Below are positions 1,915 to 62,743 of a stretch of 64,000 nucleotides of DNA, one piece after another. The position numbers were made by a program, and so were the translations under genes. Within the stretch, counting starts at the first letter, position 1, and the number at the start of each line of letters is the position of its first letter. A model generated the notes under the pieces. It saw only the letters and a list, made by a program, of their open reading frames with translations, ran no database searches and was not told the DNA's origin. The DNA comes from an uncultured Gammaproteobacteria bacterium (lineage in GTDB: Bacteria > Patescibacteriota > Patescibacteriia > UBA1558 > GWA2-36-10): positions 26,610 to 90,609 of the forward strand of contig CAZWIT010000005.1 of assembly GCA_964633905.1 (NCBI GenBank), in the 5' to 3' direction.

Positions 1915-2173
1915 GGCAGTCTCCTTTCGTTCCGTTTGACACGTTTCAAGACGCAAACCCAAAAACAGCCAGCTCTATTTGATCCTCTTTTGATCAACGA
2001 GTTGGCTCAAGCGTAGTGTATATTCCACTATCAAAGAACAAATGTATTTTTACAAATAGACCCAATAGTCTAAAACAATTACATAATTATGTCAAGATTT
2101 GATTATCAATAATAACCAAAAAAGAGCAGCAACTGCTCTCTTTTAATTTTAAACATAGATATTAATAAAGCCC

Positions 2174-29768: not shown

Positions 29769-30115
29769 GATTTTTTATTCAATAGCTTAATTTGATTATA
29801 GGCAAATTCTATTTGTTTTTTTAATTCAACAAAATTTAGCTCTAAGGCACTTTTTTTAGCTATAATTAGCAAATTATATCCTGGTTTTAAGTCTTTTAAA
29901 AAACTTCTATTTATTTCTCTTAGTCGTCTTTTTAATAAATTTCTTCTACTTGCCCTTTTATCAACTTTATTTGAAACTATAAAACCAATCTTAATGTCCT
30001 TATCTTGATTAGCTAGATATTTTAAGGTTAGTTGCGGCAAAAAAAAGGTTTTACCAGATCGGATTAACCTTTTTATTTCTAAGTCAGTGTTTAATCTGTT
30101 GTTTTTGGCCAACAT
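29765..30115 (-). CDS. rnpA: Ribonuclease P protein component
   Basis: 116-aa basic protein. Its position between rpmH and yidD is universally conserved, and the RNR-like basic motif (KRASRRNLLKRRLREI) is present. Confidence 0.8.
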   Translation of the reverse strand: MLAKNNRLNTDLEIKRLIRSGKTFFLPQLTLKYLANQDKDIKIGFIVSNKVDKRASRRNLLKRRLREINRSFLKDLKPGYNLLIIAKKSALELNFVELKKQIEFAYNQIKLLNKKS

Positions 30116-48776: not shown

Positions 48777-48789
48777 AATATATGAAACA

Positions 48790-48830
48790 ATCTCGAACAT
48801 TCGGGATTGTTTTTTTTATGGCTGCTTAGT
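48790..48830 (+). terminator. Intrinsic terminator after recA
   Basis: ACAATCTCG-aacatt-CGGGATTGT hairpin followed by TTTTTTTTAT. Confidence 0.5.
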
Positions 48831-48841
48831 ATAATAGCCCT

Positions 48842-50275
48842 ATGTCGCAAGCCCATAAAATTTTCACCAATACTGTCTGGCAAATAGTTATTCGCTTTTT
48901 TGACGTTGTTTTAGGAGTAGTTAATCTTGGTCTGATTGCTCGCCTTTTGGGCACAACTCAATTTGGCTACTATACTACTATTTTTGTCTTTTTGCAGACA
49001 ATAGTTACCATTGCCGATTTTGGTTTATTTTTAGCCTTGCTTAATGAAATTTCAAGCACTGACGATAAACAGCTAGAGGCCAAAAGGCTTAATAATATTT
49101 TTACTATTCGGGTAGTTTCTATTTTATTATTTTTAGCCTTGTCGCCACTGCTTATCAAAGCATTTCCTTTTAGTAGTTTTGTTAAGGGAGGGGTAGTATT
49201 TTTGTTAGGAGCTTATTTTTGGCAGAGTCTGATATCTACCTTGACTGCTGTTTTTTCAAAATATTTAGATATGGCTAAAGCTACTTTAGTTTATGTCGTG
49301 GCTAAGGCTATTTATTTCTTTTGTTTGTTATATTTATTTTTTAATCATGGCACCCTGAATCAGATTTTGCTTTGGAATTCGATTAGTACTGGCTTTGGTT
49401 TTTTATTACTGTATATTTTTTTAAGGCGCTATCAAAAATTAAGGCTAGCCTGGGATTTTGTTTATTGGCGACATGTTTTTAAAATTGCTTGGCCACTGGC
49501 CATTGGTGTGGTTTTGAATCTATTATATTTTAAAGCTGATACTTTAATTTTGTCAGCTTATCATTCGGCTGATAAGGTTGGTTTATATGGTGCGGCTTAT
49601 AAAGTGCTAGAGGTTTTGACAACTTTCCCGCATATGTTTATGAGTTTGATTTTACCATTATTTACATTGGCTTGGGCTAAGCAGGATTTTAAAAAATTAA
49701 ATCAAATTGAGCAAAATACTTACGATTTTTTTGCTATTATTAATATTTGGGTAGTTTTAGTGGTTTGGTTGGCAAGTAAGCCGATTATGATTTTATTGAC
49801 TGGGCAAGAATTTGTTTTGGCTGGCTCTATTTTAAACGTGCTTATTTTAGCAGTCGTAGCTATATTCTTTGGTACCATGTTCACTTATTTAGTAGTGGCT
49901 ATGGGTTTGCAAAGAGCTATGGTTAAATATTATTTACTGGCAGCTATTCTTGGCTTGGGGGCTTATTTTATTTTTATACCAAAATATTATTATTGGGCAG
50001 CAGCTATTATCACGGTTTTAATTGAGGGCTTAATTTGGTTTTGGGCTTGGCGCTTAGTAAGTAAAAAAATTAAAATTAAATTAAGTAATCTAGTATTAGG
50101 ACGCAGTCTACTGTCGGCTTTGGTTGTTTTTTTATTTTTTTATAAATTTAGATTTTTGCCAGTTGTTTTGTTGGTAGTCCTAGCCAGTCTTAGTTATTTT
50201 GTTTTATTATTTTTATTTAAAGCAGTTGATAAAAATAAAATTAGGCTTATCTTAGGAAAGGATAAATATGTTTAA
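48842..50275 (+). CDS. Polysaccharide/oligosaccharide flippase (Wzx-like, MOP superfamily)
   Basis: 477 aa with about 12-14 TM segments. The N-terminal region is typical of the polysaccharide biosynthesis protein family. The gene overlaps the next gene by 8 nt. Confidence 0.6.
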   Translation: MSQAHKIFTNTVWQIVIRFFDVVLGVVNLGLIARLLGTTQFGYYTTIFVFLQTIVTIADFGLFLALLNEISSTDDKQLEAKRLNNIFTIRVVSILLFLALSPLLIKAFPFSSFVKGGVVFLLGAYFWQSLISTLTAVFSKYLDMAKATLVYVVAKAIYFFCLLYLFFNHGTLNQILLWNSISTGFGFLLLYIFLRRYQKLRLAWDFVYWRHVFKIAWPLAIGVVLNLLYFKADTLILSAYHSADKVGLYGAAYKVLEVLTTFPHMFMSLILPLFTLAWAKQDFKKLNQIEQNTYDFFAIINIWVVLVVWLASKPIMILLTGQEFVLAGSILNVLILAVVAIFFGTMFTYLVVAMGLQRAMVKYYLLAAILGLGAYFIFIPKYYYWAAAIITVLIEGLIWFWAWRLVSKKIKIKLSNLVLGRSLLSALVVFLFFYKFRFLPVVLLVVLASLSYFVLLFLFKAVDKNKIRLILGKDKYV

Positions 50276-51578
50276 TATTATTTTAGGTTTTATTGCACAA
50301 TTAGGTTTTATTAGTATAAGTTGGCGTAAACCAATTTATGGTTTGTGTTTAATTATTATTTTATTGCCAAGTTATCTGTGGCGTTTTGACCTAGTTGGTT
50401 TGCCTACAACTTTTTTAGAAATAATAATTTGGTGGTTACTTATTATTTGGTTAATTAAAGAGCAACGTTGGCAAAGAATAAATTGGCTTTTTAACAAGTC
50501 AACTGAAAATTTAGTACCAAAAATTTGGCGTTATTTAATTTCAGCTTGGTTAATTATTAGTATTATTGCCTGTCTGCATAATCCAAGTTTAACAGCCTTA
50601 GGTTTATGGAGAGCTTATTTTTTAGAGCCAATTTTATTTTTTATTATATTTATTTATTTAATAAAAGATCAGACAGATCTAAAGCTAGTTATCAAATCCT
50701 TAGGTTTATTATTGTTTGGCTTATTTATAGTAGCTATTTATCAAAATTTTAGTGCTTGGAATTTGCCTTTAGCTTACGACCTTCCTAATGTGAGGCGTTT
50801 AACAGCGGTATTTTCTTATCCTAACGCTCTAAGTCTTTTAGTGGCGCCCATAACCGCCTTTTTTGCAGGTTTATACTTAGTACAGCGTCGACATAATTAT
50901 TTATATTTAACCTTATTTTTTGTAGGTTTTTTACTAATTTGGTGGACAGTAAGCCAAGGCGCAATAGCCGGGGTTATTTTTAGCATTATGGTTTATGGCT
51001 TTTATTTGATTAATAAATTTTTGCAAAGTCGTTATAGCTTTAGAACTAGGGGCGTAGTTTATACTTTTATTTTATTAGTTTTATTGGTTTTTTGGCTTAA
51101 GCATCCCCTGGCCTTAAAGTTTCAACAAGAATTATTCCAGCCAGAATTAAATTTAGCAGCCAGTTCTTTAGAAATTCGCAGTAATCAATGGCAGGAAACA
51201 TTGCTAATGTTAAGAGATCATTGGTGGTCCGGAGCAGGATTAGCTGCTTATCAAATAAACATGATTCCTTATCATCACCTAGATTGGTTAGAAATATATT
51301 TATATCCTCATAATTTATTTTTAAATTTTTGGAGTGAATTAGGTCTCTTGGGATTATTATGTTTTTTGGCTATTTTATTTTTTATAGCACGCGAATTTAA
51401 ATTTTTATTTGAAAATAAACAAGTCTTAGCTTGGCCGCTACTGCTAATGTGGCTTACTTGGTTTGTTCAGGGCTTGGTGGACGTGCCATATTTTAAAAAC
51501 GATTTGAGTATTTTATTTTTCATACAATTAGGCTTTTTACTTGTTAGTAAAAGACTAAATAATAGATTTACACTTTAG
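50268..51578 (+). CDS. O-antigen ligase (Wzy_C/WaaL/PglL) family membrane protein
   Basis: Polytopic protein with an extracytoplasmic loop carrying the family motif ...WWSGAGLAAY...HHLDWLEIYLYPHNLFLNFWSELGLLG (H-N-x-(F/Y)-L-x3-E-x-G-x2-G). Confidence 0.6.
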   Translation: MFNIILGFIAQLGFISISWRKPIYGLCLIIILLPSYLWRFDLVGLPTTFLEIIIWWLLIIWLIKEQRWQRINWLFNKSTENLVPKIWRYLISAWLIISIIACLHNPSLTALGLWRAYFLEPILFFIIFIYLIKDQTDLKLVIKSLGLLLFGLFIVAIYQNFSAWNLPLAYDLPNVRRLTAVFSYPNALSLLVAPITAFFAGLYLVQRRHNYLYLTLFFVGFLLIWWTVSQGAIAGVIFSIMVYGFYLINKFLQSRYSFRTRGVVYTFILLVLLVFWLKHPLALKFQQELFQPELNLAASSLEIRSNQWQETLLMLRDHWWSGAGLAAYQINMIPYHHLDWLEIYLYPHNLFLNFWSELGLLGLLCFLAILFFIAREFKFLFENKQVLAWPLLLMWLTWFVQGLVDVPYFKNDLSILFFIQLGFLLVSKRLNNRFTL

Positions 51579-51670
51579 TTAAATTTTAGTATAATATAGT
51601 TAATACTATTATAAATTTACAAGCTTTAAGCGGCTATAAAAGTATTTAGTTTAAATTATTATAATTAATA

Positions 51671-52549
51671 ATGTTGATCTCTAAAAAGGTAAGTAAAATT
51701 CGTAAGGCAATTGTGGCTGTTGCTGGTTCCGGAACTAGGTTGTTACCAGCTACCAAAAGCATGCCTAAAGAAATGTTGCCTATAGTTGATAAACCGGTAA
51801 TTCAGTTAGTAGTAGAAGAATTAGTATCAGCTGGCATTGAAGATATTATTTTAGTAACCAAGTGGGATAAAAAACCACTAGAAGATCACTTTGATCATTC
51901 TTGGGCTTTAGAGAGTGAACTTGCTAAAGCTGGTAAAAAAGAGAAGTTAAGGGAGATTCAAAAGATCTCAGAGATGGCTAATTTTATCTATATCAGACAA
52001 AAAGGTCCTTATGGTAATGGCACACCGGTGCTTTCGGCTGCCAGCCTGGTAGATGATGAGCCGTTTATGTATGTTTGGGGAGATGATTTAGTAAAATCCA
52101 AAATACCATTTGCCAAACAAATGATTGATGAATATTATAAAACAGGTCATTTGATGATAGGTGTGCAAGAAGTAGATCGTAAACAGGTGGATAGATATGG
52201 CATTGTCAGTATTAAAGATAAAAAGACAATGCAGATTGATGACATTGTAGAAAAGCCAAGTGTCAAAACAGCCCCTTCTTGTTTAGCTGATTTTGGTAGG
52301 ATGATTTTGAATCAAGAAATTATTGATATTTTAAAAAAGACACGCTTAGGCAAAGGTAACGAACTTTGGATAGTTGATGCTATTAGGAGCTATATTAAAG
52401 CAGGGGGTAAATTTTATGCCAAAGAGATAAAAGATGGTAAGTGGCTCACTACTGGTGATTCCTTGAATTTATTAAAAACAACTCTAGAGTATGCTTGGGA
52501 TAGAAAAGAGTTGAAGGATTTTTTACAAAATTATTTAAAAAATAAATAG
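51671..52549 (+). CDS. galU: UTP--glucose-1-phosphate uridylyltransferase
   Basis: N-terminal AIVAVAGSGTRLLPATKSMPKEMLPIVDKPVIQ matches the GalU nucleotide-binding signature. Confidence 0.8.
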   Translation: MLISKKVSKIRKAIVAVAGSGTRLLPATKSMPKEMLPIVDKPVIQLVVEELVSAGIEDIILVTKWDKKPLEDHFDHSWALESELAKAGKKEKLREIQKISEMANFIYIRQKGPYGNGTPVLSAASLVDDEPFMYVWGDDLVKSKIPFAKQMIDEYYKTGHLMIGVQEVDRKQVDRYGIVSIKDKKTMQIDDIVEKPSVKTAPSCLADFGRMILNQEIIDILKKTRLGKGNELWIVDAIRSYIKAGGKFYAKEIKDGKWLTTGDSLNLLKTTLEYAWDRKELKDFLQNYLKNK

Positions 52550-52553
52550 AAAA

Positions 52554-53927
52554 ATGGCTAGGTTAAAAATTTTTACACTTGGTATTTTAGGCATCTTTAT
52601 GATGACCACTGGTTTTGGTTGTAAAGGTATCCAAGGTTGTAGTATCAAAAAGCCACCAGAAGCTCAGCCTGTTACTTTAGAATACTGGGGTGTATGGGAC
52701 AGTCCAGATCAGATAGCTCCTCTAATCGGCGCTTATCATTCTACTCATCCCACTATTAATATTAATTATCGACAATTACGCTACGAAGAATACGAGCGCA
52801 AGCTACTTGAAGCTTGGGCTGATGATAGAGGGCCAGACGTTATGGCTATACCAGTTAGTTGGTTAAATCGTTATAAGGATAGATTAACACCGCTGCCAGC
52901 AGTGATGTCGATACCAGTAAAGGAAGTTACTGGCACTATTAAAAAGGAAACAATCACTTCTTTACAGGAGATAAATGGCTTGTCGATTGGTGATATTAAA
53001 TCAAAATATGTAGACGTTGTTTATAATAACGTTATTAAAGATAATAGTATTTATGCCTTGCCTTATTCTGTCGACACCCTGATTACTTTTTATAATCTAG
53101 ATTTGTTGGAGGCAGCCGGCATTCCACAACCAATGAATAATTTTTCAGAGCTAATAGATCAGGTGCCAAAATTAACTAAAGTTAGTGCTGATAATAAAAT
53201 ATATCAAGCTGGTGTAGCTTTGGGGGGCACTGATAATATCCCGCGTTATTTTGATATTATTTCTAATCTAATGTTGCAAACTAATGTAGAAGTCAAAGGT
53301 AGCAGCTTTAATCCTAATGCTAAAGCTGAATCAGCAGCTAATTTTGTTAGAGTTTTTGGTTTTTATACTGATTTTACTAGACCAGGATTAGCTAGCTATA
53401 GCTGGGACAGTAGTATGCCTAATGCTTTGGATATGTTTATGCAAGGTAATTTAGCTTATTTTTTTGGCTATAGTTATAATGCTGATGCTATTAGGGCAAA
53501 AGGAGTTTCGTTTGACTGGGGTATTACTAAATTTCCCCAGCCAGCCGGTGCCCAAGGCGATAAATATTATTCAGATTATTGGGTTAATGTGGTACCAAAA
53601 AAATCTAAAAATGTTAATGCTGCTTGGAATTTTGTACAAACAACAGCCAGTACTGATTTAGTAAAAGTTTATTTAGATACTAATAAGAGACCAACTGCTT
53701 TGCGCGCCTTGATCAATGAACAAAAAGCCAATCAAGATTTGGCAGTTTCTGCTAACCAAGTTTTAGCAGCTGATAATTGGTACGGTGGCTATGATTATAA
53801 TTTAGCGGAACAGTATTTCAAAAATTTTATTGATGGTATTCTAGATGGACAAATAGATATGAATAATAGAGAGCACACTAATCTTTTTATAGAACGAATT
53901 AATCAGACTTACTATAAACAACAATGA
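52554..53927 (+). CDS. Extracellular solute-binding lipoprotein (ABC-type sugar-binding family 1), orphan
   Basis: Signal peptide with lipobox TTGFGC. The SBP_bac_1-like sequence TLEYWGVWDSP... follows. No cognate permease or ATPase genes are adjacent. Confidence 0.55.
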   Translation: MARLKIFTLGILGIFMMTTGFGCKGIQGCSIKKPPEAQPVTLEYWGVWDSPDQIAPLIGAYHSTHPTININYRQLRYEEYERKLLEAWADDRGPDVMAIPVSWLNRYKDRLTPLPAVMSIPVKEVTGTIKKETITSLQEINGLSIGDIKSKYVDVVYNNVIKDNSIYALPYSVDTLITFYNLDLLEAAGIPQPMNNFSELIDQVPKLTKVSADNKIYQAGVALGGTDNIPRYFDIISNLMLQTNVEVKGSSFNPNAKAESAANFVRVFGFYTDFTRPGLASYSWDSSMPNALDMFMQGNLAYFFGYSYNADAIRAKGVSFDWGITKFPQPAGAQGDKYYSDYWVNVVPKKSKNVNAAWNFVQTTASTDLVKVYLDTNKRPTALRALINEQKANQDLAVSANQVLAADNWYGGYDYNLAEQYFKNFIDGILDGQIDMNNREHTNLFIERINQTYYKQQ

Positions 53928-54541
53928 TTAGGTTTTTATTTTTATTATTAATATTGATCTGGCCAGAAACAGGTAGAGCAGCTGGATTTTTGGATAGTGT
54001 AGCTTGTATAGAGGCTGGTAATTGCGATTTACCAGATGTTGTTACTGGCTTAGTCTATTTAATTAGATTAATGCTGGGTGGCATGGGCTCGGTAGCTTTA
54101 ATCTATTTAGTAATCGGTGGTTTGCAGTGGTTAACCAGCTCCGGTAGCCCTGATAAGGTAAAGAAGGGTAAGGATATTATAATGAATACAATTTTTGCTT
54201 TAGCCTTGGCTTTCAGTAGTTATGTTGTTTTGGATCTTTTTGTTAATAAAATTTTAGCAGTTAAGCCAGAATACAGCGGTGTTAAAACCGCTCCAGTTGG
54301 GCGTTGCGGTGTTGATGTGCGAGCCGAAGGTTTAGCCTGTGAGCTTCCTACTAAAAATAAAGTTTGTTATAAGGGACAGTGTAAAATTGAGTGTGATATT
54401 CGAAAAGAAGAGTCTGGTGAAAATTGGCACTGTGCCATAATAGATCTTAATGATCCGACTAGTCCTTATTCTGAGGCAAATGGTAATTTAATAACTGGCT
54501 TGTGTCCAGATCCAATTAATAATGTCTGTATTAAAGATTAA
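53924..54541 (+). CDS. TrbC/VirB2-like pilin paralog 1 with C-terminal Cys-rich (10 Cys) extension
   Basis: Signal peptide, then a hydrophobic hairpin core LGGMGSVALIYLVIGGLQWLTSSGSPDKVKKGKDI...ALALAFSSYVVLDL shared with the five downstream paralogs. A C-terminal 80 aa carries 10 Cys. The gene overlaps the upstream gene by ATGA. Confidence 0.6.
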   Translation: MIRFLFLLLILIWPETGRAAGFLDSVACIEAGNCDLPDVVTGLVYLIRLMLGGMGSVALIYLVIGGLQWLTSSGSPDKVKKGKDIIMNTIFALALAFSSYVVLDLFVNKILAVKPEYSGVKTAPVGRCGVDVRAEGLACELPTKNKVCYKGQCKIECDIRKEESGENWHCAIIDLNDPTSPYSEANGNLITGLCPDPINNVCIKD

Positions 54542-54550
54542 TATTTATTT

Positions 54551-54904
54551 ATGAAAAAGATTTTAAAATTTTTACCAACATTTTTATTATTATTACCATC
54601 ATTAGTTTTAGCTGCTGAAGATCCTGCCCCAAATACAAATTCAACTATTCCTTTGGACAATCCTTTGGGTGCCAGTGATGTTGGCGGTTTTATAGGCAAT
54701 GCCATTAATGGCGTCCTAGGTGTAGTTGGCGCCTTATCTTTATTTTATTTTGTTTTAGGCGGCTTGACTTGGATGACATCTCAAGGTAGTCAAGAAAAAG
54801 TAAAAAGGGGTAAAGAGACCTTAATTTGGGCTACTTTTGGTTTAGCTATGATATTTTTTAGTTATGCCTTAGTTAATTTTGTCTTAAAAAAATTGGTTAG
54901 TTGA
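54551..54904 (+). CDS. TrbC/VirB2-like pilin paralog 2
   Basis: Signal peptide, then the core LGVVGALSLFYFVLGGLTWMTSQGSQEKVKRGKETL...FGLAMIFFSYALVNF. Confidence 0.6.
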   Translation: MKKILKFLPTFLLLLPSLVLAAEDPAPNTNSTIPLDNPLGASDVGGFIGNAINGVLGVVGALSLFYFVLGGLTWMTSQGSQEKVKRGKETLIWATFGLAMIFFSYALVNFVLKKLVS

Positions 54905-54913
54905 TAACTTTAC

Positions 54914-54942
54914 TTGAAAGAAATACACTTTTGTTGTATAAT
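54914..54942 (+). promoter_or_regulatory. Sigma70-like promoter upstream of pilin paralog 3
   Basis: TTGAAA (54914-54919), a 17-nt spacer, and TATAAT (54937-54942). A strong RBS AAGAAGGGGGGTG precedes the ATG at 55027. Confidence 0.45.
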
Positions 54943-55026
54943 TTTAAGTGGATAATAGTTCATATAGTCAATATTTTGTTTAATTATTATTTATTATTAA
55001 AATAATAAAAGAAGGGGGGTGAAACA

Positions 55027-55401
55027 ATGAAAAAATTATTAGCCTTTTTATTGTTGTTAGGACCAGCTTTAGCAGCCAGTCCAGCTTCAGCCACTGCTAC
55101 CATAAATGATTTTGGTGTCAACCAAATGAGAAATTTATCAACTTTCTCTACCAGAAGCGTTTATGATACTATTGCCGGTATTATTAACATCATTTTAGGA
55201 TTTTTAGGTACCATTGCCGTGTTGTTATTCTTATTTGGAGGTTTCAAGTGGGTAACTTCACAAGGTGAGTCTAATAAGATTGACGAAGCTAAGAAATTAA
55301 TGGGTGCTGCTGTTGTAGGTATTGCCATTATCTTTGCCTCATACGCCGTATCTCAATTTATTATTTCTCAACTTTATCAGAATACAATCCAAGGCGGTTA
55401 G
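55027..55401 (+). CDS. TrbC/VirB2-like pilin paralog 3
   Basis: Signal peptide, then FGVNQMRNLSTFSTRSVYDTI, then the core ILGFLGTIAVLLFLFGGFKWVTSQGESNKIDEAKKLMGAAVVGIAIIFASYAVSQF. Confidence 0.65.
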   Translation: MKKLLAFLLLLGPALAASPASATATINDFGVNQMRNLSTFSTRSVYDTIAGIINIILGFLGTIAVLLFLFGGFKWVTSQGESNKIDEAKKLMGAAVVGIAIIFASYAVSQFIISQLYQNTIQGG

Positions 55402-55498
55402 TATTTATTTTAATTTTCATAGACCTTATAGTCTAGACTATAGCAGCCCAAATTTTGGGCTGCTGAGGCGTGGACTTTATCAACCTTTATAGAAGCTT

Positions 55499-55858
55499 GT
55501 GAGAATAGTATTTGTTTTTGTACTATTATTAATGCCAAAGATGGTTTTGGCTACTGATATTAGCTCTTTTGGTGTGAATCAAATGAGAAATTTATCCACG
55601 TATTCTACGAGAAGTGTTTATGACACTATCTCTGGCATAGTTAACATTATTTTAGGATTTTTAGGTACCATTGCCCTGTTATTAATCTTATTTGCTGGAT
55701 TTTTATGGCTAACTTCTCAAGGGGATTCTGCTAAGATTGATCAAGCTAAAAAATTAATAGGCGCGGCAGTGGCTATGATGGTGGTTGTCTTTTCTTCTTA
55801 TGCCATAGCTCAATTTATAATTACCCAGCTTTATCAGAATACAATCCAAGGCGGGTAG
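55499..55858 (+). CDS. TrbC/VirB2-like pilin paralog 4 (GTG start)
   Basis: Same layout as paralog 3 but more divergent at the nucleotide level (core ILGFLGTIALLLILFAGFLWLTSQGDSAKIDQAKKLIG...). Confidence 0.55.
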   Translation: MRIVFVFVLLLMPKMVLATDISSFGVNQMRNLSTYSTRSVYDTISGIVNIILGFLGTIALLLILFAGFLWLTSQGDSAKIDQAKKLIGAAVAMMVVVFSSYAIAQFIITQLYQNTIQGG

Positions 55859-55921
55859 TATTTTTAACTAGTAATTATTAATTATATTAATTATTTATCA
55901 TATAATATATAAAAGAATTTT

Positions 55922-56284
55922 ATGAAAAAAGCATTAGTATTTTTTTTGTTATTAGCACCAAGTATGGCTTCAGCTACGGCTAGTCTCAATGATTTTGGTG
56001 TTAATCAAATGAGAAATCTATCTACTTTTTCTACGAGAAATGTTTATGATACTATTTCTGGTATTGTTAACATTATTTTAGGATTTTTAGGTACCATTGC
56101 CGTGTTGTTATTCTTATTTGGAGGTTTCAAGTGGGTAACTTCACAAGGTGAGTCTAATAAGATTGACGAAGCTAAGAAATTAATGGGTGCTGCTGTTGTA
56201 GGTATTGCCATTATCTTTGCCTCATACGCCGTGTCTCAATTTATTATTTCCAAGCTTTACGAGAATACAATCCAAGGTGGTTAG
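55922..56284 (+). CDS. TrbC/VirB2-like pilin paralog 5 (3' half near-identical to paralog 3)
   Basis: The core and C-terminus are nearly identical to paralog 3 at the DNA level. The N-terminal mature region is a diverged FGVNQMRNLSTFSTRNVYDTI. Confidence 0.65.
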   Translation: MKKALVFFLLLAPSMASATASLNDFGVNQMRNLSTFSTRNVYDTISGIVNIILGFLGTIAVLLFLFGGFKWVTSQGESNKIDEAKKLMGAAVVGIAIIFASYAVSQFIISKLYENTIQGG

Positions 56285-56348
56285 TATTCTTTATAATTTT
56301 GGCTTTGTTAAAATAAGTGTGGACTTTATGAATAATTATTTTATAGCT

Positions 56349-56744
56349 ATGCGTAAATATTTTATTTTAGCCTTGTTGGGCTTTTTACTATTGCCACACA
56401 TCTCATTTGCCTTGACTGATCCGATGAGCAGTTTAGAGGAGGCTGGTAGGCGGTCTGGTTTAAATACTAACTTATCAGCAACTGATATTATTGCCCGCAC
56501 TATTAATGCAATTTTAGGTTTGGTTGGCTCGGTTTTTGTGGTTTTGATTATTTGGTCTGGTTTTCGTTGGATGACTTCAGCTGGTAATACTGATCAGATT
56601 AAAAAAGCCAAAGAAACCATGATTAATTCAGTAATTGGTTTAGCTATTATTGTTGCTTCTTATGTTATTAGCTACACTATTTTAACAGTTTTAGTTGAAG
56701 GCAGGTTGCCCGGTGGTGGTGGCGGTATGGGTGGTACTCCTTAA
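56349..56744 (+). CDS. TrbC/VirB2-like pilin paralog 6 with Gly-rich C-terminal tail
   Basis: The start is placed at MRKYFILALLGFLLLPHISFA (a signal peptide); an alternative ATG lies at 56328. The core is ILGLVGSVFVVLIIWSGFRWMTSAGNTDQIKKAKETM...GLAIIVASYVISY. The tail is GGGGGMGGTP. Confidence 0.55.
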   Translation: MRKYFILALLGFLLLPHISFALTDPMSSLEEAGRRSGLNTNLSATDIIARTINAILGLVGSVFVVLIIWSGFRWMTSAGNTDQIKKAKETMINSVIGLAIIVASYVISYTILTVLVEGRLPGGGGGMGGTP

Positions 56745-56764
56745 TAAAATTTAATTTAAAAAAA

Positions 56765-56802
56765 CGCCCCGGTCTCACACGCGTGAGACCGGGGCTTTTG
56801 TT
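56765..56802. terminator. Strong bidirectional intrinsic terminator between the pilin array and the high-GC lipoprotein gene
   Basis: Perfect 13-bp stem GCCCCGGTCTCAC-acgc-GTGAGACCGGGGC flanked by A7 upstream and TTTTGTTT downstream. Confidence 0.65.
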
Positions 56803-56815
56803 TAGCGCTGAGTTA

Positions 56816-57499
56816 CTAGCGCTGATTTGGGTAGATGAAAACATTCCAACCTAGGAGGTGTTCGACGCCGTTGTCGTCAACCCAGATCACATTGTCTGGA
56901 TTATCGTCGATAATCATATAGTAACTGCGCACGCCGCCGCTATAACCACCGTAGCAGTTTTCCAGCGGGTAGGCATAGAAGGTTACAGGGCCCGGTTGCA
57001 GTTTGCGGATCTTGGTCGACTGTCCAGGGTAGAGGATGCCGTAGTCGTTGTTACGGTCATCGGTAACATGGAAGCTACAAACTTCCTTGTTCATGATCAC
57101 ACCCAACTGCGGCACTTTGCCCCGCAAGAAGAAGTCGTCAACGTAGATTACGTCTCCAGGAAAGACTCCGGTACGAGTAAGTTCAAGTTCGTCCAGGGTC
57201 TCGTTTACGCCCTTCTTTCGCGGAAAGACGATAGTCCAACGTTCCTCTCGATCCGACCTACGGTGGAAAGTGTGGCTAGTGCCTGGCAGTATCTCGATGC
57301 GGCTTTCGTTTTCCGGCCCAACGAAAAAGGGGCCGGTACCGGTGTTTACCCAGGCCTTGTCGATAGAGACAGCCGGATCTGACCTGGGAAAGGTCAGACT
57401 GTCGCCATGCTCGTTCAGGAGCCGCGGGCCAGCGCAGGCGCTGAGGAGCGTGAGCAGTCCAAGGGCCAGCGCAAACAGCAAGTAAGTCTTGTATTTCAT
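56816..57499 (-). CDS. High-GC (about 52%) secreted lipoprotein, unknown function; compositionally foreign
   Basis: MKYKTYLLFALALGLLTLLSAC is a signal peptide with a lipobox. Codon usage is rich in CTG, GCC and CGC, unlike all neighbouring genes. Confidence 0.6.
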   Translation of the reverse strand: MKYKTYLLFALALGLLTLLSACAGPRLLNEHGDSLTFPRSDPAVSIDKAWVNTGTGPFFVGPENESRIEILPGTSHTFHRRSDREERWTIVFPRKKGVNETLDELELTRTGVFPGDVIYVDDFFLRGKVPQLGVIMNKEVCSFHVTDDRNNDYGILYPGQSTKIRKLQPGPVTFYAYPLENCYGGYSGGVRSYYMIIDDNPDNVIWVDDNGVEHLLGWNVFIYPNQR

Positions 57500-57638
57500 T
57501 GTCTTACCTCTTTTCTGTTAAGGAGCCAGTGCCATCACTAGGTATTAGGATGGCATTTTGAGTTAACATTATATTATATACTATTTTTATGTTTTTGTCA
57601 ATAGATAAACTAAAATAATCTTATGTTATAATGTTATT

Positions 57639-59567
57639 ATGTTTTTTAATAAAATTAAAAATAAGCTCTCTAATTTTATTTTAGATAAAAAAATAGAGAA
57701 AAAGACTCTAAGGCTATTGTGGCTTTTTATTTTATTATATATTGCCATTTTTTTATTTTTGGTATTTAAGCGCTATCATTATTTTACTTATAATATCAGT
57801 GATCTGGCTATTTTTAATCAAACTTTTTTTAATACTATACATGGTCGCTGGTTTGATGAAACCGTAACTTTAAATAATTATTTTGCCGACCACTTTTCGC
57901 CTATCATTTTTTTGTTATTACCTTTTTATTTTTTATTACCCTCACCTCTTACTCTACTTAGTCTGCAAACTATTGGCTTGGGGCTAGCTGCTTGGCAACT
58001 TTTTTATTTAAGCAGAGAAATTAGCAAAAATGATAAAGTGTCTTTGTTGGTAGCTACTATTTGGTTATTGAATCCAATGCTACAAGCAGCTAATCTGGAT
58101 GAGAACCATTTATTGTATTTGGTGCCAGGCTTAGTTTTTGCTACAGCTTATTTTTATTTAAAAAATAGATTTTCTTATTTTCTATTATTTTTTATTTTAG
58201 CTTTATTAATACGAGAAGACATTGCTTTAATCATGCTCATGTGGTCTGTGCTAGCTAAACTTGATAAAAAAGATAAACAGTGGATTATTAGCCCGCTAGT
58301 ATTAGCTTTAACATATTTTATATTGGCTATTAGTATTATTAAATCTTTGGCTAGCAATGATAGTTATAAATTTTTTAATTATTATAACTGGCTAGGCGGG
58401 GACGATTTATTTAGTATTATAGCTAGTTGGCTTACTCATCCTTTGGCAGTTATGCAACATTTATTAAGTTGGAATAATATTTCGGGTATTTTGATAATAT
58501 TATTACCTCTTTTATATTTACCACTTATAAAACCAAAATATTTATTGCTATCGCTATTAACTTTTTTACAGCTAGCTATGACTACTAGAGGCTTTAGTAG
58601 TGTAGCTTATATGACTCGTTTTTCCCTTTTGCTTTTACCTAGTATTTTTATTTCTTTTATTTTTTCTTTAGACTATATTCAAGCTAAAAAAGGTTTTTTG
58701 TTTAGTAATTTTATTTATAAGAATTTCGCTTTTAGTAAATTTTTGATGTTTTTTACTGTGCTTTATTTTTTTATCTTTTTATCACCAGCCAGACATGTAG
58801 CTTTTAAAAAATATGACCAAGAGCAAAGGCTAAATCAGTATTCAATGCTACAGGCTGTACCAGCAGACAAGAGCATTACTGCTACTAATAATTTTTTGCC
58901 GCAATTAAGCAATCGACAATTTCTTTATAATATTGATTATGTTTATTTTAGACGTACGCAATTTAGTCAGGCAGTATTTAAGCCAATTGATACGGATTAT
59001 CTTTTACTTGATTATAGCGATTTTTTGACTACTATTGCTGATGCTAAAAGTAGCATTGCTTTGGCAGAATATTGGCCTAATATGCCTTTAGAGTGGCGTG
59101 AATTTTTACAAAATTACTCTTTAATTAAGGCAGAAAATAATGTCTTGTTATGGCAAATAAAAAACCAGGCTAATGGTTCTGGTTTAAAGCTTTATGAACT
59201 ACAAGACAAGGATCAATTACAAGCAGCTAATAATTTTTTATTTAGTAAAGCTAGCATTTTAAATCAGAGCCACAGAGTTTTGAAATTGACTATCCAAGAT
59301 ATTGGCAATGTCGATAATTCTTATTTGATTCGTTTTTATAGTCGGAATAGTTATTTTGACATGCCCTTGGACTACGGTCTAATGACAAGCGTTGATTGGC
59401 AACAAAAAATAGCCAGCTTTTATTATTATCTTAATCCCAGCGTAGAGAATTATCAGATTTTTTCCTGGCAGGGTATTAATAAATTAGGTCTAGAACAACA
59501 AGTTTATCTAGATAAAAAGCTGGAAAAAATCACTGATAAGATTGCTTTTACTGATAATGAGTTTTGA
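57639..59567 (+). CDS. Polytopic membrane protein with large C-terminal extracytoplasmic domain (GT-C-like glycosyltransferase candidate)
   Basis: 642 aa. About 10-12 N-terminal TM helices are followed by an approximately 250-aa soluble domain. The layout matches GT-C-fold enzymes. Confidence 0.45.
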   Translation: MFFNKIKNKLSNFILDKKIEKKTLRLLWLFILLYIAIFLFLVFKRYHYFTYNISDLAIFNQTFFNTIHGRWFDETVTLNNYFADHFSPIIFLLLPFYFLLPSPLTLLSLQTIGLGLAAWQLFYLSREISKNDKVSLLVATIWLLNPMLQAANLDENHLLYLVPGLVFATAYFYLKNRFSYFLLFFILALLIREDIALIMLMWSVLAKLDKKDKQWIISPLVLALTYFILAISIIKSLASNDSYKFFNYYNWLGGDDLFSIIASWLTHPLAVMQHLLSWNNISGILIILLPLLYLPLIKPKYLLLSLLTFLQLAMTTRGFSSVAYMTRFSLLLLPSIFISFIFSLDYIQAKKGFLFSNFIYKNFAFSKFLMFFTVLYFFIFLSPARHVAFKKYDQEQRLNQYSMLQAVPADKSITATNNFLPQLSNRQFLYNIDYVYFRRTQFSQAVFKPIDTDYLLLDYSDFLTTIADAKSSIALAEYWPNMPLEWREFLQNYSLIKAENNVLLWQIKNQANGSGLKLYELQDKDQLQAANNFLFSKASILNQSHRVLKLTIQDIGNVDNSYLIRFYSRNSYFDMPLDYGLMTSVDWQQKIASFYYYLNPSVENYQIFSWQGINKLGLEQQVYLDKKLEKITDKIAFTDNEF

Positions 59568-59570
59568 GCA

Positions 59571-61151
59571 TTAAGGCTCAAGTACTTTTAGTAAAATAAA
59601 ACGTTCATTATTGATCATTGTTTGCAGATAGGGCTCATTACTAAGCCATTTTTTTTCATTAAAATCAGAAACAAAGTCACTGCTAATAAAAATATAATCA
59701 ATACTTCTTTCCCTTAGCCAAGCGCTGATATCATGAGCTTCTGCCAAGAGCCCTTCAAGCTCTTGGTTTTTTTTATCAAATTCCCAAGTTTGCATGCGGT
59801 GACCAATATAAACATTTCTAGCAGTAAAAGCCGGTATTTGAATACCATCGTTGGGGTAGCTCAAAAAAACATCACCAGGCTTTGATTCTTGTTTTATTAT
59901 TTGCCAAATATTTTTGCGCCCATTATCAAAAAACATCATGTTATTATAAGCCTCTAGATAATAGATGGGCACAATTGTTTTTAACAAAGTATCAAAAAAA
60001 ATAAAAAAAGCGATAATAGACAGGTAAATATATTTTAGCTTTGATTTTTTATTTAAATATTTTATTCCATAAAAAGCAATAATACACAAAGCAATATGCC
60101 AGCCATTGCTGAGGCGACGATTAAAATCTAGGGGCAAATAAACCAAGATAAAACCAAGCAATGACCAAAGGCAAGTTAGCAGTAGGTAGTTATTTTTTAA
60201 AATAAGCTCTTTATTTTTCTTGATATATACTAAGCCCAAGATAAAAAGTAACAAGATCAGACCATAACCAATGATATAGGATAAAAGATTTGGCGATTTT
60301 AGTATATTTTGTTGATGATGTTCAGACATTACCGGATCTTGTAATAGCCACCAGTAATAATAAGCCATAGGCAGTGATGTGAATAGCAGGATTAAATAAT
60401 AAGAAATTATTTTTTTTGACTTATTTAAATACATGATGCACAGGCTAGTAAGTCCGGCAACGCTTAATATGATTGGTATATCGTAAGGATGGATTAAACT
60501 CAAAAATAGATTGCTAATAAACAATAATATGATATAGATTGTTTTTTTACTTTCATAAGCCTTAATAAACAATGAAAATGTCAGTAATATCAGGGTTTGT
60601 GACATGATAAATAGTGGTGACTGGGTCAAAGCATCAAAGGTAATGCTCTCCGGCATCCAAATGCTAGTAGGCAGGATATTGTGTTGCTCTAAGGAGGGGT
60701 AGGCTAGGTAGGCAAAGCCATTAGAAAATAATATAAAAAGCAGGGGCCAAAATATTTTGGCACCAAATATTTTTTTTAAAAGCCAGATCAATATCAAAAT
60801 AAATATTAGGCTTGTAATTAATCTAATAATAAAATAGCTAACAATGCTCGAGTTAAACAAATTACTAAATTGCCCCATCAAATACCAGTGGGGAGCAAAT
60901 AAATCTCGGTTTTGTGCTTTGTAATTATATAGGTTATCGATAAATATTTTACCTTGGGCACCTTGTTCGATATTGGATAAATAAACAAAGTGATCGCCAC
61001 TATTAACAAAAGGTATAGATAGGTAGTTTAGACCTTTATTATAAGCAGTATAAAAACCAATAATATGATTTAAATTATTACTGATTAAAAAAGTTAAAAT
61101 TAATAAAATTAGTTTCCAATTATGCTTTAAGTAAGAACTAATACTTCTCAT
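59571..61151 (-). CDS. Polytopic membrane protein with C-terminal extracytoplasmic domain (GT-C/PMT-ArnT-like candidate)
   Basis: 526 aa. The first extracytoplasmic loop contains an acidic segment (SGDHFVYLSNIEQG). Multi-TM N-terminal half and a soluble C-terminal domain. Confidence 0.45.
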   Translation of the reverse strand: MRSISSYLKHNWKLILLILTFLISNNLNHIIGFYTAYNKGLNYLSIPFVNSGDHFVYLSNIEQGAQGKIFIDNLYNYKAQNRDLFAPHWYLMGQFSNLFNSSIVSYFIIRLITSLIFILILIWLLKKIFGAKIFWPLLFILFSNGFAYLAYPSLEQHNILPTSIWMPESITFDALTQSPLFIMSQTLILLTFSLFIKAYESKKTIYIILLFISNLFLSLIHPYDIPIILSVAGLTSLCIMYLNKSKKIISYYLILLFTSLPMAYYYWWLLQDPVMSEHHQQNILKSPNLLSYIIGYGLILLLFILGLVYIKKNKELILKNNYLLLTCLWSLLGFILVYLPLDFNRRLSNGWHIALCIIAFYGIKYLNKKSKLKYIYLSIIAFFIFFDTLLKTIVPIYYLEAYNNMMFFDNGRKNIWQIIKQESKPGDVFLSYPNDGIQIPAFTARNVYIGHRMQTWEFDKKNQELEGLLAEAHDISAWLRERSIDYIFISSDFVSDFNEKKWLSNEPYLQTMINNERFILLKVLEP

Positions 61152-62743
61152 AGTTCGATTTTATAAATATTAAAATAAGCATCTTTATATAACAAGGGTA
61201 AATTAGGATCCTGGTCCAAGGCCTGAATTAATTTTTCATGGTCTTTTTTTTCAACAAAAATATATTCAGCTCGGTAGTTATCTTTTATTTCTTTAGCTAG
61301 ATTAACCCGAATATTGCCTCTGGTAATATCACTATATTTTTGTTGCAGCTGGGGGTCATAGTTGTACATGAAAGTAAAATCTAGACCAATGATATAGCGA
61401 TTATGATCATTAAAATAAAACAACATTGGCCATTCGTCCCAATCGCTATGGAAAACAATACTATCTTTAGGGGTATTCTGTTTTAGCCAGTTACTTGCTG
61501 CTTGATAGCGTAGGCGAGGATGTTCGCTTGGTATATTAGTATTTAGTATCTGCTGATAGATGATGGGCATTAACAATGTTCCTAATACAAATAAGCTGCT
61601 CAAGAGGAATGTTTTTAGCTGCCAACTTAAGTCTTGCCAAATATCTGATATTTTTTGCCACTTAAAAATTTTTATAATATCACTAGTACCGCTAGCGACA
61701 AATAGTAATAAGAAAGGAGAATAGTATTCGGTATAGCGAATTGATTTTAAGCTTAAAAATAAAAAAGCAAAGCTTAATAAAAAACTAAACCAGCTTAAAC
61801 GGCTGATTTTTTTGATATTAAAAAATAATAAAACAAAGATTATACTAGCCATTATAAAAATTAGTAGAGAGGTGCTAGCGAGGATTGAGTGAAAACTAGC
61901 TCCGTACCATTCACCACCAACTGGAAATTGGCCGCTTTTGTTGATTAAACCGATTTGAAAAAATTGTTGGTAGTAAGCATAGGTGTTTTGAGGGAAGTAA
62001 GGATTGATGATAATTCCGCTTAGCAAACCAGCCAGTAGATATCGGGCTAATTTTTTGAGGTCAAAGTGTTCGTGGACGCTATTTAAAATAATGACAATTT
62101 TATTATGAAATAATTTTATTTTCTGGTGATGGATAAAAGCGTAGATATAATCGGCTAGATAAAATATTATAAAAATAAAAATAGCCAATGGCCAGCCGCC
62201 ATAGAGCCAGACATAGATAAATCCCAGGGCAGCTAAGGTTTTATATTTTTTTTGGAAAAAAGCATAAATAAGCAGCCAGACCATAATCAGCGACAAGCCG
62301 GTAATTTTTATTAAGGACAAGCGGAAACTTAAGGCAGGTAGGATAATCAGTAATAAACTAAAAAACCAAGGCCAGGATATTTTGAATTTTTTTAGTAGCC
62401 AATAAAAAACCAAGGCTTGAGCAGTGGCAAAAATAACAGCTGATATTTTTACACCTAAAAGAGGGTCGTTGTTAATGAGGGTAAGTGGTGCTTGGAGCAA
62501 ATGGTATAGTAAATGCTGGTCCGTAAAATTATCACGCAGGCTGCTAAATTGCATCCAGGGCATGGATTTCAAGAAATGGCCGTGAGCAAGCAAGTTAGCT
62601 AGTTTAGCATGAAAAAAACCATCTGGATCACCAATATAATCGTTCCATTGTAGCCTAGTATAGTGAGCAACTATAAATAAGCCTAATACTATATAATCAA
62701 GCTTAAGACTATTTAATATTTTTTTAGTTTTGCCGACAGTCAT
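61148..62743 (-). CDS. Polytopic membrane protein with C-terminal extracytoplasmic domain (GT-C/PMT-ArnT-like candidate)
   Basis: 531 aa. The first loop carries DYIGDPDGFFHAKL, an acidic DxD-like motif. Same layout as the upstream paralog, and the gene overlaps it by 4 nt. Confidence 0.45.
   Translation of the reverse strand: MTVGKTKKILNSLKLDYIVLGLFIVAHYTRLQWNDYIGDPDGFFHAKLANLLAHGHFLKSMPWMQFSSLRDNFTDQHLLYHLLQAPLTLINNDPLLGVKISAVIFATAQALVFYWLLKKFKISWPWFFSLLLIILPALSFRLSLIKITGLSLIMVWLLIYAFFQKKYKTLAALGFIYVWLYGGWPLAIFIFIIFYLADYIYAFIHHQKIKLFHNKIVIILNSVHEHFDLKKLARYLLAGLLSGIIINPYFPQNTYAYYQQFFQIGLINKSGQFPVGGEWYGASFHSILASTSLLIFIMASIIFVLLFFNIKKISRLSWFSFLLSFAFLFLSLKSIRYTEYYSPFLLLFVASGTSDIIKIFKWQKISDIWQDLSWQLKTFLLSSLFVLGTLLMPIIYQQILNTNIPSEHPRLRYQAASNWLKQNTPKDSIVFHSDWDEWPMLFYFNDHNRYIIGLDFTFMYNYDPQLQQKYSDITRGNIRVNLAKEIKDNYRAEYIFVEKKDHEKLIQALDQDPNLPLLYKDAYFNIYKIEL

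Follow-up and report, generated by a model that had tools for sequence, protein, structure and literature searches.

Does the six-gene pilin array of this locus form a single glycosylation-and-assembly operon with the genes for glycan-handling membrane proteins around it? The 64,000-nucleotide stretch of DNA that we analysed (the window) contains the region from 48842 to 62743, in which a first, sequence-only reading had placed a possible glycosylated VirB2-like pilus or surface fibre, an interpretation that is partly supported. We propose that the region comprises three separable modules rather than one operon: an overlapping Wzx/Wzy_C pair (module 1); a packed run of GalU, LP457 (a lipoprotein resembling sugar-binding proteins), pilin 1 and pilins 2-6 (module 2); and the GC-rich lipoprotein LP227 with a DUF2079 protein and two AglB/STT3-like GT-C paralogs that resemble extracytoplasmic glycosyltransferases (module 3). 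This explanation as a whole, in which a type IV secretion system (T4SS) uses the pilins and the GT-C proteins are likelier transferases than Wzy_C, is tentative, and we give it a probability of roughly 0.45.

Gene order across the region is conserved in relatives, and because the entire order from rpoC to YebC is kept, housekeeping genes included, gene order alone says little. Both dnaA and the GC-skew minimum lie inside the window, and the region probably represents a conserved cell-surface neighbourhood ~18-32 kb from oriC in the genome of a Komeilibacteria-like host of class ABY1. All locus links reported here are synteny within one class, and since many of the loci are close kin, locus counts are not independent.

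Table 1. Features of the region, with positions in the window.
Feature	Position	Strand	Evidence
Terminator-like hairpin after RecA, just 5' of Wzx	48784..48813	+	consensus scan only
Wzx-like MOP-family flippase	48842..50275	+	Pfam Polysacc_synt E 2.5e-21, Polysacc_synt_3, MatE
Wzy_C (O-antigen ligase/polymerase family) polytopic protein	50268..51578	+	Pfam Wzy_C E 1e-16
Promoter-like site, 11/12 matches, in gap before GalU	51567..51595	+	consensus scan only
GalU-like UTP-glucose-1-phosphate uridylyltransferase	51671..52549	+	Pfam NTP_transferase E 2.7e-29
LP457, orphan lipoprotein, 457 aa, family-1 carbohydrate ABC-transporter binding-protein-like	52554..53927	+	PDB 3uor E 1.9e-14
Pilin 1, VirB2-like core and Cys-rich C-terminal extension of ~85 aa	53924..54541	+	PF18895 30.2 bits
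Pilin 2	54551..54904	+	PF18895 37.0 bits; TrbC 24.8 bits; NF045849 E 1.6e-6
Pilin 3	55027..55401	+	PF18895 27.0 bits
Pilin 4, GTG start	55499..55858	+	PF18895 24.3 bits
Pilin 5	55922..56284	+	PF18895 29.6 bits
Pilin 6, probable ATG start	56349..56744	+	PF18895 44.5 bits
Strong bidirectional terminator-like hairpin, pilin 6/LP227 gap	56766..56795	.	13-bp stem, 10 G-C pairs
LP227, GC-rich 227-aa lipoprotein, conserved after array	56816..57499	-	GC 0.537, GC3 0.654
Perfect sigma-70 consensus, LP227	57573-57601		consensus scan
DUF2079 polytopic membrane protein	57639..59567	+	PF09852 E 9e-50
TM526, 526 aa, TM531-like layout	59571..61151	-	hhalign vs TM531 family
TM531, 531 aa, GT-C glycosyltransferase, unannotated Patescibacteria family	61148..62743	-	structure model

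The six small same-strand genes at 53924-56744 had been read as encoding VirB2/TrbC-like pilins, and both the coordinates and the T4SS_pilin matches bear this out: five of the six products pass the curated cut-off of that Pfam family (PF18895; 26.6 bits), pilin 4 falling marginally below it, and weak TrbC/VirB2 matches were found in four. Pilin 2 also matches NF045849, a Mycoplasma ICE pilin-like family. In its AlphaFold model, a signal helix and a disordered stretch of ~20 residues precede two long helices with a 5-residue loop between them, a helical hairpin that agrees with the predicted two-helix hydrophobic core; similarity to pilins emerged from the HMM but not from a fold search with this model, which gave no significant match. 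The invariant alignment columns of the six proteins (L, G, G, G, W, T, S, G, K, S and Y) follow the motif proposed from sequence, except that its 'GG' and 'AK' vary. Pilins 3 and 5 share 89% identity and are therefore recent duplicates, and pilin 4 is 67-69% identical to both; pilin 1 is a separate ortholog that accompanies LP457 even in loci where the array has moved (arrangement 2). For pilin 6 a TTG start at 56205 was discarded in favour of the ATG at 56349 as most likely. The pilins are probably Sec-exported two-helix VirB2-like subunits that would have diversified via tandem duplication.

That paralog arrays of this kind are typical of Patescibacteria is already published, such tandem arrays being known near oriC and dnaA (PMC12102498). 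Among other Patescibacteria, 1135 assemblies have pilins of the same family next to virB4 (PMC12102498), and a pilin series within a T4SS cluster is essential in Southlakia epibionticum (PMC10633639). No T4SS machinery was found among window ORFs of at least 100 aa, in line with the reported absence of VirB4, VirB6 and VirD4; since Table S1 of PMC12102498 records VirB4 for two relatives that have this locus, the accompanying statement that assembly of the pilins is unknown can be softened. The pilins would serve the type IV secretion apparatus of Patescibacteria, whose genes would lie at another place in the genome.

GalU is the first gene of the packed run, in which the spacing from GalU through LP457 and pilin 1 to pilin 2 is 4, -4 and 9 bp, the LP457 stop and the pilin 1 start overlapping as ATGA. 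The assignments of the MOP flippase, Wzy_C and GalU held up in matches to Polysacc_synt, Wzy_C and TIGR01099 (galU; E 2e-84, with 283 bits under the equivalog cut-off of 327), but these genes do not all lie immediately upstream of the pilins, as LP457, unmentioned before, separates GalU from pilin 1. LP457 also matches many sugar-binding proteins as well as NCBIfam GanS (E 1.6e-7), its homolog in locus L165 is SBP_bac_1/8 by Pfam, and the Cys at the end of its signal peptide is invariant. With a pilin gene directly 3' of it in 62 of 69 loci of a sample centred on LP457, the lipoprotein appears to be the pilins' constant partner, and it is probably a membrane-anchored carbohydrate-binding component that works with pilin 1.

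On the other side of the array, LP227 is GC-rich, as expected of the foreign gene it had been taken for, but 24 related loci carry a homolog in this position, each GC-richer than its own locus; LP227 matches nothing in Pfam or NCBIfam and has only 6 homologs in a large protein database (NCBI/Logan/ENA accessions). The three polytopic proteins beyond it are GT-C-like, as proposed: DUF2079 by Pfam (presumably as a member of the GT-C clan), TM531 by structure, and TM526 as a distant TM531 paralog (hhalign probability 94%, E 1e-7, 459 columns) whose gene overlaps that of TM531 by 4 bp. Neither TM531 nor TM526 has a Pfam match, and the DUF2079 protein has no PDB sequence match and no relation to either by hhalign. 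In the confident TM531 model (pLDDT 92) the fold is of GT-C type, nearest to AglB/STT3/PglB, with an AglB-like C-terminal globular domain. That glycan-handling membrane proteins neighbour the array is thus supported. In the LP457-centred sample, a TM531-family or DUF2079 gene occurs in 19 of 21 loci with at least three pilins versus 0 of 9 with at most one. TM531-family genes stand beside arrays in two orders, convergent (as in the window) or divergent, and in the latter are paired with a family-2 glycosyltransferase; DUF2079 adjoins pilin arrays in L165 and L166, mirror-image loci retrieved via TM531 homologs. A Glycos_transf_2 gene (230-270 aa) adjoins TM531-family genes in 25 related loci, and this partner is absent from the window. 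Judged by synteny only, the link between array and GT-C proteins is better supported than that between Wzx/Wzy_C and the pilins.

It is possible, though at clearly less than even odds, that the modules are not functionally coupled at all, and that Wzx, Wzy_C, GalU, DUF2079, TM526 and TM531 produce, for a single-membrane envelope, a wall polysaccharide or lipoglycan while the array merely shares a conserved, highly expressed near-origin neighbourhood. Against such independence, GT-C genes occur with multi-pilin arrays in two gene orders but not in loci that have only pilin 1, GalU is packed into the LP457/pilin run, and Wzx-Wzy_C adjoins, in other lineages, a second type of filament cluster, that of type IV pili. 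Conservation of the whole rpoC-YebC order fits it, as do unrelated cargo in the Wzy_C/GalU gap, pilins without a sequon signal and the TM531 homologs of L162-L164, which head long operons of GT-C (MptA_B/GT87/PMT_2-like) and family-2 glycosyltransferases and have no pilin gene closer than 10 kb, an arrangement that suits envelope polymer synthesis and counts against the three-module explanation.

The mechanism first suggested, in which a PglL/PilO-type Wzy_C puts a Wzx-flipped lipid-linked glycan on the pilins and GalU provides UDP-glucose, we consider improbable. Wzx and Wzy_C overlap by 8 bp and stay adjacent in nearly all related loci, and the pair is set apart as a unit by the terminator-like site 5' of it and by 92 bp of intergenic sequence, with a promoter-like site, before GalU. 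Wzx, Wzy_C, GalU and pilins are co-oriented within 8 kb in the window and in 34 of the 50 loci centred on Wzy_C that have at least 9 kb of downstream sequence, as the mechanism would have it, whereas just 7 of 32 loci in the LP457-centred sample have Wzy_C 8-10 kb or less upstream of the LP457/pilin pair. The Wzy_C/GalU junction varies among relatives, holding 0-9 kb of unrelated cargo that includes no glycosyltransferases, and Pfam detected neither a priming phosphoglycosyl transferase nor a cytoplasmic glycosyltransferase at 48.8-62.7 kb. The Wzy_C family (>1100 homologs, ~50% identity across Komeili-, Parcu- and Nomurabacteria) matches PDB 7tpg, which we take to be WaaL, at E 5e-6; the Pfam match is Wzy_C alone, and no feature separates ligase, polymerase and protein O-transferase. 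Where the pilin array is lacking, a type IV pilus cluster follows Wzy_C in 11 of 21 loci, in 4 of those 11 with a co-directional 916-aa pilin-like gene ~120 bp downstream. These neighbours favour a role in pilin modification, yet taken with the separateness of the gene pair, the cargo junction and the 7 of 32 loci they speak against Wzy_C as O-oligosaccharyltransferase, and Wzx as flippase, for the array's pilins. The link of the pair to these pilins is weak; Wzx/Wzy_C would handle some lipid-diphosphate-linked glycan.

Evidence for pilin glycosylation is circumstantial and points to other enzymes. Ser, Thr, Ala and Gly abound in the exposed N-termini of the pilins (S+T 16.3% versus 11.2% background), which favours the Wzy_C mechanism; against it, glycosylation of any bacterial conjugative pilus structure has not been described (PMC9905601). 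Across 313 pilins, the exposed N-terminal segment shows no enrichment of N-x-S/T sequons (83 versus 80 +/- 7 in shuffles). Under the three-module explanation, if pilins or lipoprotein are glycosylated, the GT-C enzymes would be likelier transferases than Wzy_C and would use as donor a polyprenol-linked sugar derived ultimately from GalU's UDP-glucose. That the two-helix proteins are instead membrane-embedded partners of LP457, for instance as parts of a sensor or uptake device that GalU would tie to sugar use, is very improbable: the constant, overlapping LP457/pilin 1 pair, the lack of T4SS machinery nearby, the non-significant fold search and the fact that, to our knowledge, no pilus of PF18895 proteins has been visualised speak for it, but significant T4SS_pilin matches, weaker TrbC/VirB2 and Mycoplasma ICE pilin-like ones, the family's virB4 neighbourhood and essentiality noted above, and diverging-paralog arrays (3-11 members) typical of surface-exposed subunits speak against it.

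Among known systems is the Wzx/Wzy-dependent route to wall polysaccharide of single-membrane bacteria, exemplified by TuaB/TuaE for teichuronic acid; the window has a like overlapping MOP flippase/Wzy_C-family pair in an organism without lipopolysaccharide, but no adjoining repeat-unit glycosyltransferases or priming enzyme. PglL/PilO (TfpO) O-oligosaccharyltransferases glycosylate type IV pilins in Neisseria, Pseudomonas and Acinetobacter. The window resembles them in a Wzy_C-family polytopic protein beside pilin genes with a Wzx-type flippase adjoining, but its pilins are VirB2-type, the adjacency is loose and lineage-limited (type IV pilin genes adjoin the pair only in other lineages), and no assay or sequence feature parts its Wzy_C protein from ligases or polymerases.

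Three-component extracytoplasmic glycosylation relies on a family-2 glycosyltransferase of GtrB/CsbB/Ppm1 type to provide a polyprenol-phosphate sugar, which a GT-C enzyme of YfhO, PMT or TfpW type then transfers; the gene of the GT-C enzyme TfpW adjoins a pilin gene. The Glycos_transf_2 genes beside TM531-family genes in the 25 related loci and a GalU that would supply UDP-glucose recall this scheme, whereas the window itself has neither the family-2 partner nor a GtrA-like flippase. The AglB, STT3 and PglB oligosaccharyltransferases belong to CAZy family GT66. TM531 resembles them in a conserved acidic motif of its first external loop, in a conserved 'DWDEW' at what is presumably the position of the canonical WWDYG, itself absent, and in the small family-2 glycosyltransferases near it in relatives; it differs in being shorter (531 aa), in having no Pfam STT3 or PDB sequence match and in lying beside pilins without sequon enrichment. 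Enzymes of this family N-glycosylate pilins, archaellins and S-layer proteins in archaea (PMC5131992).

Closest are the Patescibacteria T4SS pilin arrays (Quinonero-Coronel et al. 2025, PMC12102498; Wang et al. 2023, PMC10633639). Unlike these, the window array is not adjacent to virB4, is led by LP457 and a distinct pilin 1 and flanked by GT-C proteins (none of them mentioned in PMC12102498), and contains pilins 3 and 5 at 89% identity versus a within-array maximum of 54% in PMC12102498; common to both are PF18895, tandem series of diverging paralogs (2-11) that carry Sec signal peptides, a position near dnaA and occurrence in class ABY1 genomes with VirB4.

Our best reading of the six-pilin locus is a modular surface neighbourhood, in which pilin modification by any of its enzymes is unproven. 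On the same reading, the constant partner of the pilins in class ABY1 is the sugar-binding-protein-like lipoprotein LP457, and GT-C enzymes, one of which is AglB/STT3-like, accompany the arrays. The window belongs to a low-GC (0.35) Patescibacteria chromosome and has the replication origin at its centre: cumulative GC skew is lowest at ~28-32 kb, at the YidC-RnpA-dnaA-dnaN block, which places the origin inside the window, 18-32 kb from the locus, and dnaN is followed by rpoB/rpoC, FtsK, a RodZ-like gene and RecA. In public genomes, the loci nearest to this one come from MAGs titled Komeilibacteria, Parcubacteria, Nomurabacteria or other 'Patescibacteria group', and Komeilibacteria are placed in class ABY1 (PMC12102498, Table S1). 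Elsewhere in the window, an 833-aa protein that matches the Lamin Tail Domain three times and has a PKD domain is probably another surface protein.

Features and their coordinates (window positions, or positions in loci of relatives fetched for comparison, L-numbers)
Feature	Coordinates	Strand	Remark
GC-rich island	200-1700		GC up to 0.54
354-aa ORF	898-1962	-	in island
Lamin Tail Domain/PKD protein	15908-18409	-	833 aa
Exporter-type ABC fusion	20520-22292
YidC	28803-29501
RnpA	29765-30115
dnaA	30433-31809
dnaN	32043-33146
Wzx	48842-50275	+
Wzy_C	50268-51578	+
Wzy_C-GalU gap	51578-51671		cargo in relatives L013, L015, L025, L028, L029, L057, L069
GalU-like	51671-52549	+
LP457	52554-53927		457 aa
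Pilins 1-6	53924-56744	+
Pilins 3-5	55027-56284	+
LP227	56816-57499	-	227 aa
DUF2079	57639-59567	+
TM526	59571-61151	-	526 aa
TM531	61148-62743	-	531 aa
LP227 homologs, examples	L003:15705-16406; L011:15992-16651
Wzx/Wzy_C then type IV cluster	L033:11826-17672; L036:11334-19055; L035, L039, L040, L043-L045, L073, L076, L079		ABY1, no array
Second gene order	L118:9992-20149; L137:9992-21311		about 15 similar loci
Big_2/T4SS_pilin protein	L165:17664-19196		510 aa, within pilin array

As the sequence-only reading had it, the six pilin genes are real paralogs by alignment and all lie on the plus strand, and the alignment together with an AlphaFold model bears out its description of a signal peptide followed by a two-helix hydrophobic core; the two helices are joined by a short basic loop. 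In the model of pilin 2, helices span residues 3-21, 41-75 and 81-116, a disordered stretch of ~20 residues follows the signal helix, and the 5-residue hairpin loop is the invariant W-x-T-S-x-G motif. The Pfam search that had been proposed for T4SS_pilin and TrbC matched the small proteins to T4SS_pilin (PF18895) at 24.3-44.5 bits, with five of the six above the gathering score of 26.6 bits and the sixth just under it; TrbC/VirB2 matches were weak (four pilins, 17.5-24.8 bits, all under the cut-off), and two pilins matched the NCBIfam model for Mycoplasma ICE pilin-like conjugal transfer proteins. A Foldseek search with the pilin model gave a best E of ~1, with the archaeal conjugation pilus of A. 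pernix (8dfu) at rank 1, a non-significant result that is expected for a hairpin; helical hairpins are generic.

A published catalogue covers 383 Patescibacteria assemblies in which 2-11 VirB2-like pilin genes lie in tandem (PMC12102498), in line with the earlier statement that such arrays are typical of the group, and in Southlakia epibionticum a pilin series inside a T4SS cluster is essential (PMC10633639); the array itself is thus an already known kind of feature. Within published arrays pilin identity reaches 54% at most (PMC12102498), so the 89% identity of pilins 3 and 5 indicates a recent tandem duplication; pilin 4 shares 67-69% identity with each of them. T4SS genes are frequently located close to dnaA (PMC12102498). 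Among the ORFs of at least 100 aa in the 64-kb window we found no T4SS machinery, VirB4 and VirB6 included, as had been noted for these two genes before; because two relatives with the same locus encode VirB4, the assembly apparatus is probably present elsewhere in this genome. The array of a related locus (L165) includes a protein with Big_2 and T4SS_pilin matches, which, as a VirB2-like pilin fused to an Ig-like domain, could be an adhesin-bearing subunit.

The gene between GalU and pilin 1, which was absent from the sequence-only list of locus genes, encodes LP457. Its stop overlaps the start codon of pilin 1 (spacing GalU/LP457/pilin 1/pilin 2: 4, -4 and 9 bp), and a consensus scan placed a promoter-like site in the 92-bp gap before GalU and a terminator-like hairpin after RecA. 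LP457 has no Pfam match, but its relation to family-1 sugar ABC-transporter binding proteins is clear (PDB 3uor, E 1.9e-14, and ~50 further sugar-binding proteins), with a similarity to family-1 solute-binding proteins that spans the two-lobe fold; Pfam labels its homolog in L165 as SBP_bac_1/8. A metagenome scan with the LP457 alignment yielded 80 further loci, and in 62 of 69 loci LP457 had a pilin gene directly after it. Another recurrent gene order emerged (SMC, ComM (Mg_chelatase), LP457, pilin 1, RodZ-like gene, methyltransferase), continuing after the RodZ-like gene either to RecA or to a six-pilin array ~4 kb on. This array is preceded, and faced, by a divergent pair encoding a 250-aa family-2 glycosyltransferase and a 530-650-aa polytopic protein, which an iterated search assigned to the TM531 family; behind the array come genes for a secreted protein of 227-250 aa, on the opposite strand, and for a conserved protein of 207 aa. 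Among loci with at least 8 kb of downstream sequence, a TM531-family or DUF2079 gene was present in 19 of 21 with at least 3 pilins versus none of 9 with at most one, the loci being related and the counts not phylogenetically independent. The published array survey (PMC12102498) is silent on binding proteins, on lipoproteins beside arrays and on glycosyltransferases.

Pfam and NCBIfam matches confirmed the neighbours named earlier, namely a Wzx-like MOP protein, a Wzy_C protein, a GalU-like enzyme and DUF2079. The Wzy_C domain (PF04932, E 1e-16) is common to ligases and polymerases, and the family profile matches PDB 7tpg (E 5e-6), which we take to be WaaL. A scan at one genome per species found Wzy_C relatives in 480 species, and we took 80 loci and labelled their ORFs by phmmer and a pilin HMM. 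In closer relatives the order is rpoC, FtsK, RodZ-like, RecA, Wzx, Wzy_C, a variable gap, GalU, LP457, 3-9 pilins, an opposite-strand lipoprotein, DUF2079, TM531 and YebC, and the LP457/pilin block occurs in 34 of the 50 Wzy_C loci that have at least 9 kb of downstream sequence. The Wzy_C-GalU gap is an insertion hot spot in relatives, holding 0 to ~9 kb of unrelated genes (among them DUF6498 in 9 loci, CMAS, DNA alkylation repair, AhpC, MscL, C-5 DNA methylase) and no glycosyltransferases. In 11 of 21 array-less Wzy_C loci, Wzy_C is followed by a type IV pilus cluster of PilB, PilC and N_methyl pilins, two of which are giants (a 654-aa LVIVD beta-propeller and a 916-aa CarboxypepD_reg protein). 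The Wzx/Wzy_C pair abuts VirB2-like pilin genes in some lineages and type IV pilin genes in others.

The opposite-strand lipoprotein LP227 had been called foreign; its gene is GC-rich (GC 0.54, GC3 0.65, against a GC3 of 0.23-0.34 in its neighbours). In 24 related loci a homolog sits at this very position, each 8-22 points GC-richer than its own locus, and we therefore reject a recent import. On one side of the gene lies a perfect sigma-70 consensus, on the other a strong bidirectional terminator, and a large protein database holds six homologs (47-100% identical), which neither support nor exclude an outside donor. The only other GC-rich island of the window contains an ORF of 354 aa; its product has an N-terminus resembling a signal peptide or lipobox, matches no Pfam family and has no homology to LP227 by BLASTP.

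Of the three polytopic proteins that the sequence-only reading took to be GT-C-like, TM531 is upheld by its structural model and TM526 by distant paralogy to TM531 (hhalign probability 94%), while the assignment of DUF2079 comes from its Pfam match only, the family presumably belonging to Pfam's GT-C clan; hhalign detected no relation of DUF2079 to TM531 or TM526. TM531 carries no Pfam or NCBIfam family annotation and no STT3 Pfam match at E <= 0.1, and its family comprises 3543 cluster representatives at 50% identity (1545 at E <= 1e-30); a search of a 1.84-billion-protein database was followed down to the best 150 matches. The model, confident and built from a 45-sequence alignment (pLDDT 92.1, pTM 0.90), retrieved STT3, DPY19, AglB and PglB at the top of a Foldseek search (E 6e-10 to 3e-7), with ArnT weaker. 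It predicts a GT-C membrane fold whose first external loop holds a conserved acidic residue, D39-P-D41 being conserved there (E278 is conserved as well), and an oligosaccharyltransferase-type C-terminal globular domain, at the start of which the motif 'HSDWDEWP' (H432, D434, W435, D436, P439) is conserved; its 'DWDEW' may resemble the WWDYG of PglB. With the TM531 family profile, no solved oligosaccharyltransferase appeared among PDB sequences at E <= 10. A sequence bridge from TM531 or DUF2079 to solved GT-C enzymes was sought in profile searches of PDB sequences and none was found.

A comparison centred on TM531 covered five loci of distant homologs. Two of them (L165 and L166) mirror the layout of the window, with YebC, PGI, the TM531 homolog, further GT-C or family-2 glycosyltransferase genes, DUF2079 and pilins; L165 continues to a binding protein and a nucleotidyltransferase, and the DNA of L166 stops just past the first pilin. 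The other three are long operons in which genes for GT-C enzymes (MptA_B, GT87) stand together with those for family-2 glycosyltransferases and a methyltransferase, and no pilin gene lies within 10 kb. Taken together, the locus comparisons indicate that GT-C enzymes are nearly always near arrays, yet are also present without them.

A plain envelope glycan encoded next to pilins is nearly as likely as our own reading: the array-less operons fit it, and the split between larger and smaller pilin sets (19 of 21 versus none of 9) speaks for a closer tie. It is unlikely, at roughly one chance in eight, that the AglB/STT3-like TM531/TM526 family of ABY1 glycosylates VirB2-like pilins or LP457 outside the membrane. 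When N-x-S/T was counted over the exposed N-terminal segments of 313 unique pilins, it was observed 83 times versus 80 ± 7 after shuffling, at no conserved position. A single conserved sequon turned up in the other alignments, in LP457 (N450, 20 of 24 sequences). Sequons were rejected as a sign of N-glycosylation on pilins, the tally of 5/6 in the window being largely due to recent duplicates, and the Wzy_C, TM531 and DUF2079 alignments contain no conserved sequons. Ser plus Thr make up 16.3% of the exposed pilin segment (vs 11.2%), a moderate richness that would be compatible with O-glycosylation and is no evidence for it. The least supported of the possible glycan links is the mechanism first proposed, with Wzy_C as an O-oligosaccharyltransferase served by Wzx: the pair does abut pilin genes, but its linkage to them is not stable, with Wzy_C at most 8-10 kb upstream of LP457 in only 7 of 32 loci and unrelated cargo at the junction. 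The literature searched contained nothing linking oligosaccharyltransferases or O-antigen ligases with Patescibacteria, or treating DUF2079.

The locus bears on the way in which ultra-small episymbiotic bacteria make contact with the hosts that they exploit. VirB2-like pilins are essential in the one tractable species, and the locus offers three concrete leads: LP457 as a constant pilin partner, arrays accompanied by extracytoplasmic glycosyltransferases, and Wzx/Wzy_C beside either pilin type, the adjacency to type IV clusters hinting that this Wzy_C family may glycosylate type IV pilins. The TM531 family adds thousands of unannotated proteins with an AglB/STT3-like fold. Among known structures of bacterial conjugative pili none is reported glycosylated, and archaeal ones show only weak diffuse density (PMC9905601); glycosylated pilins would be a new kind of modification for conjugative-type pili, and action of TM531/TM526 on them would make this the first conjugative-type pilus of bacteria to be glycosylated and would mean that Patescibacteria have an archaeal-style route of protein glycosylation. 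Set against family-1 ABC-transporter binding proteins, LP457 shares their sequence likeness but stands without adjoining permease/ATPase genes, of which the locus has none cognate to it, the sole ABC gene of the window being the exporter-type fusion. Set against AglB, STT3 and PglB (GT66), TM531 conserves only 'DWDEW', a putative variant of WWDYG.
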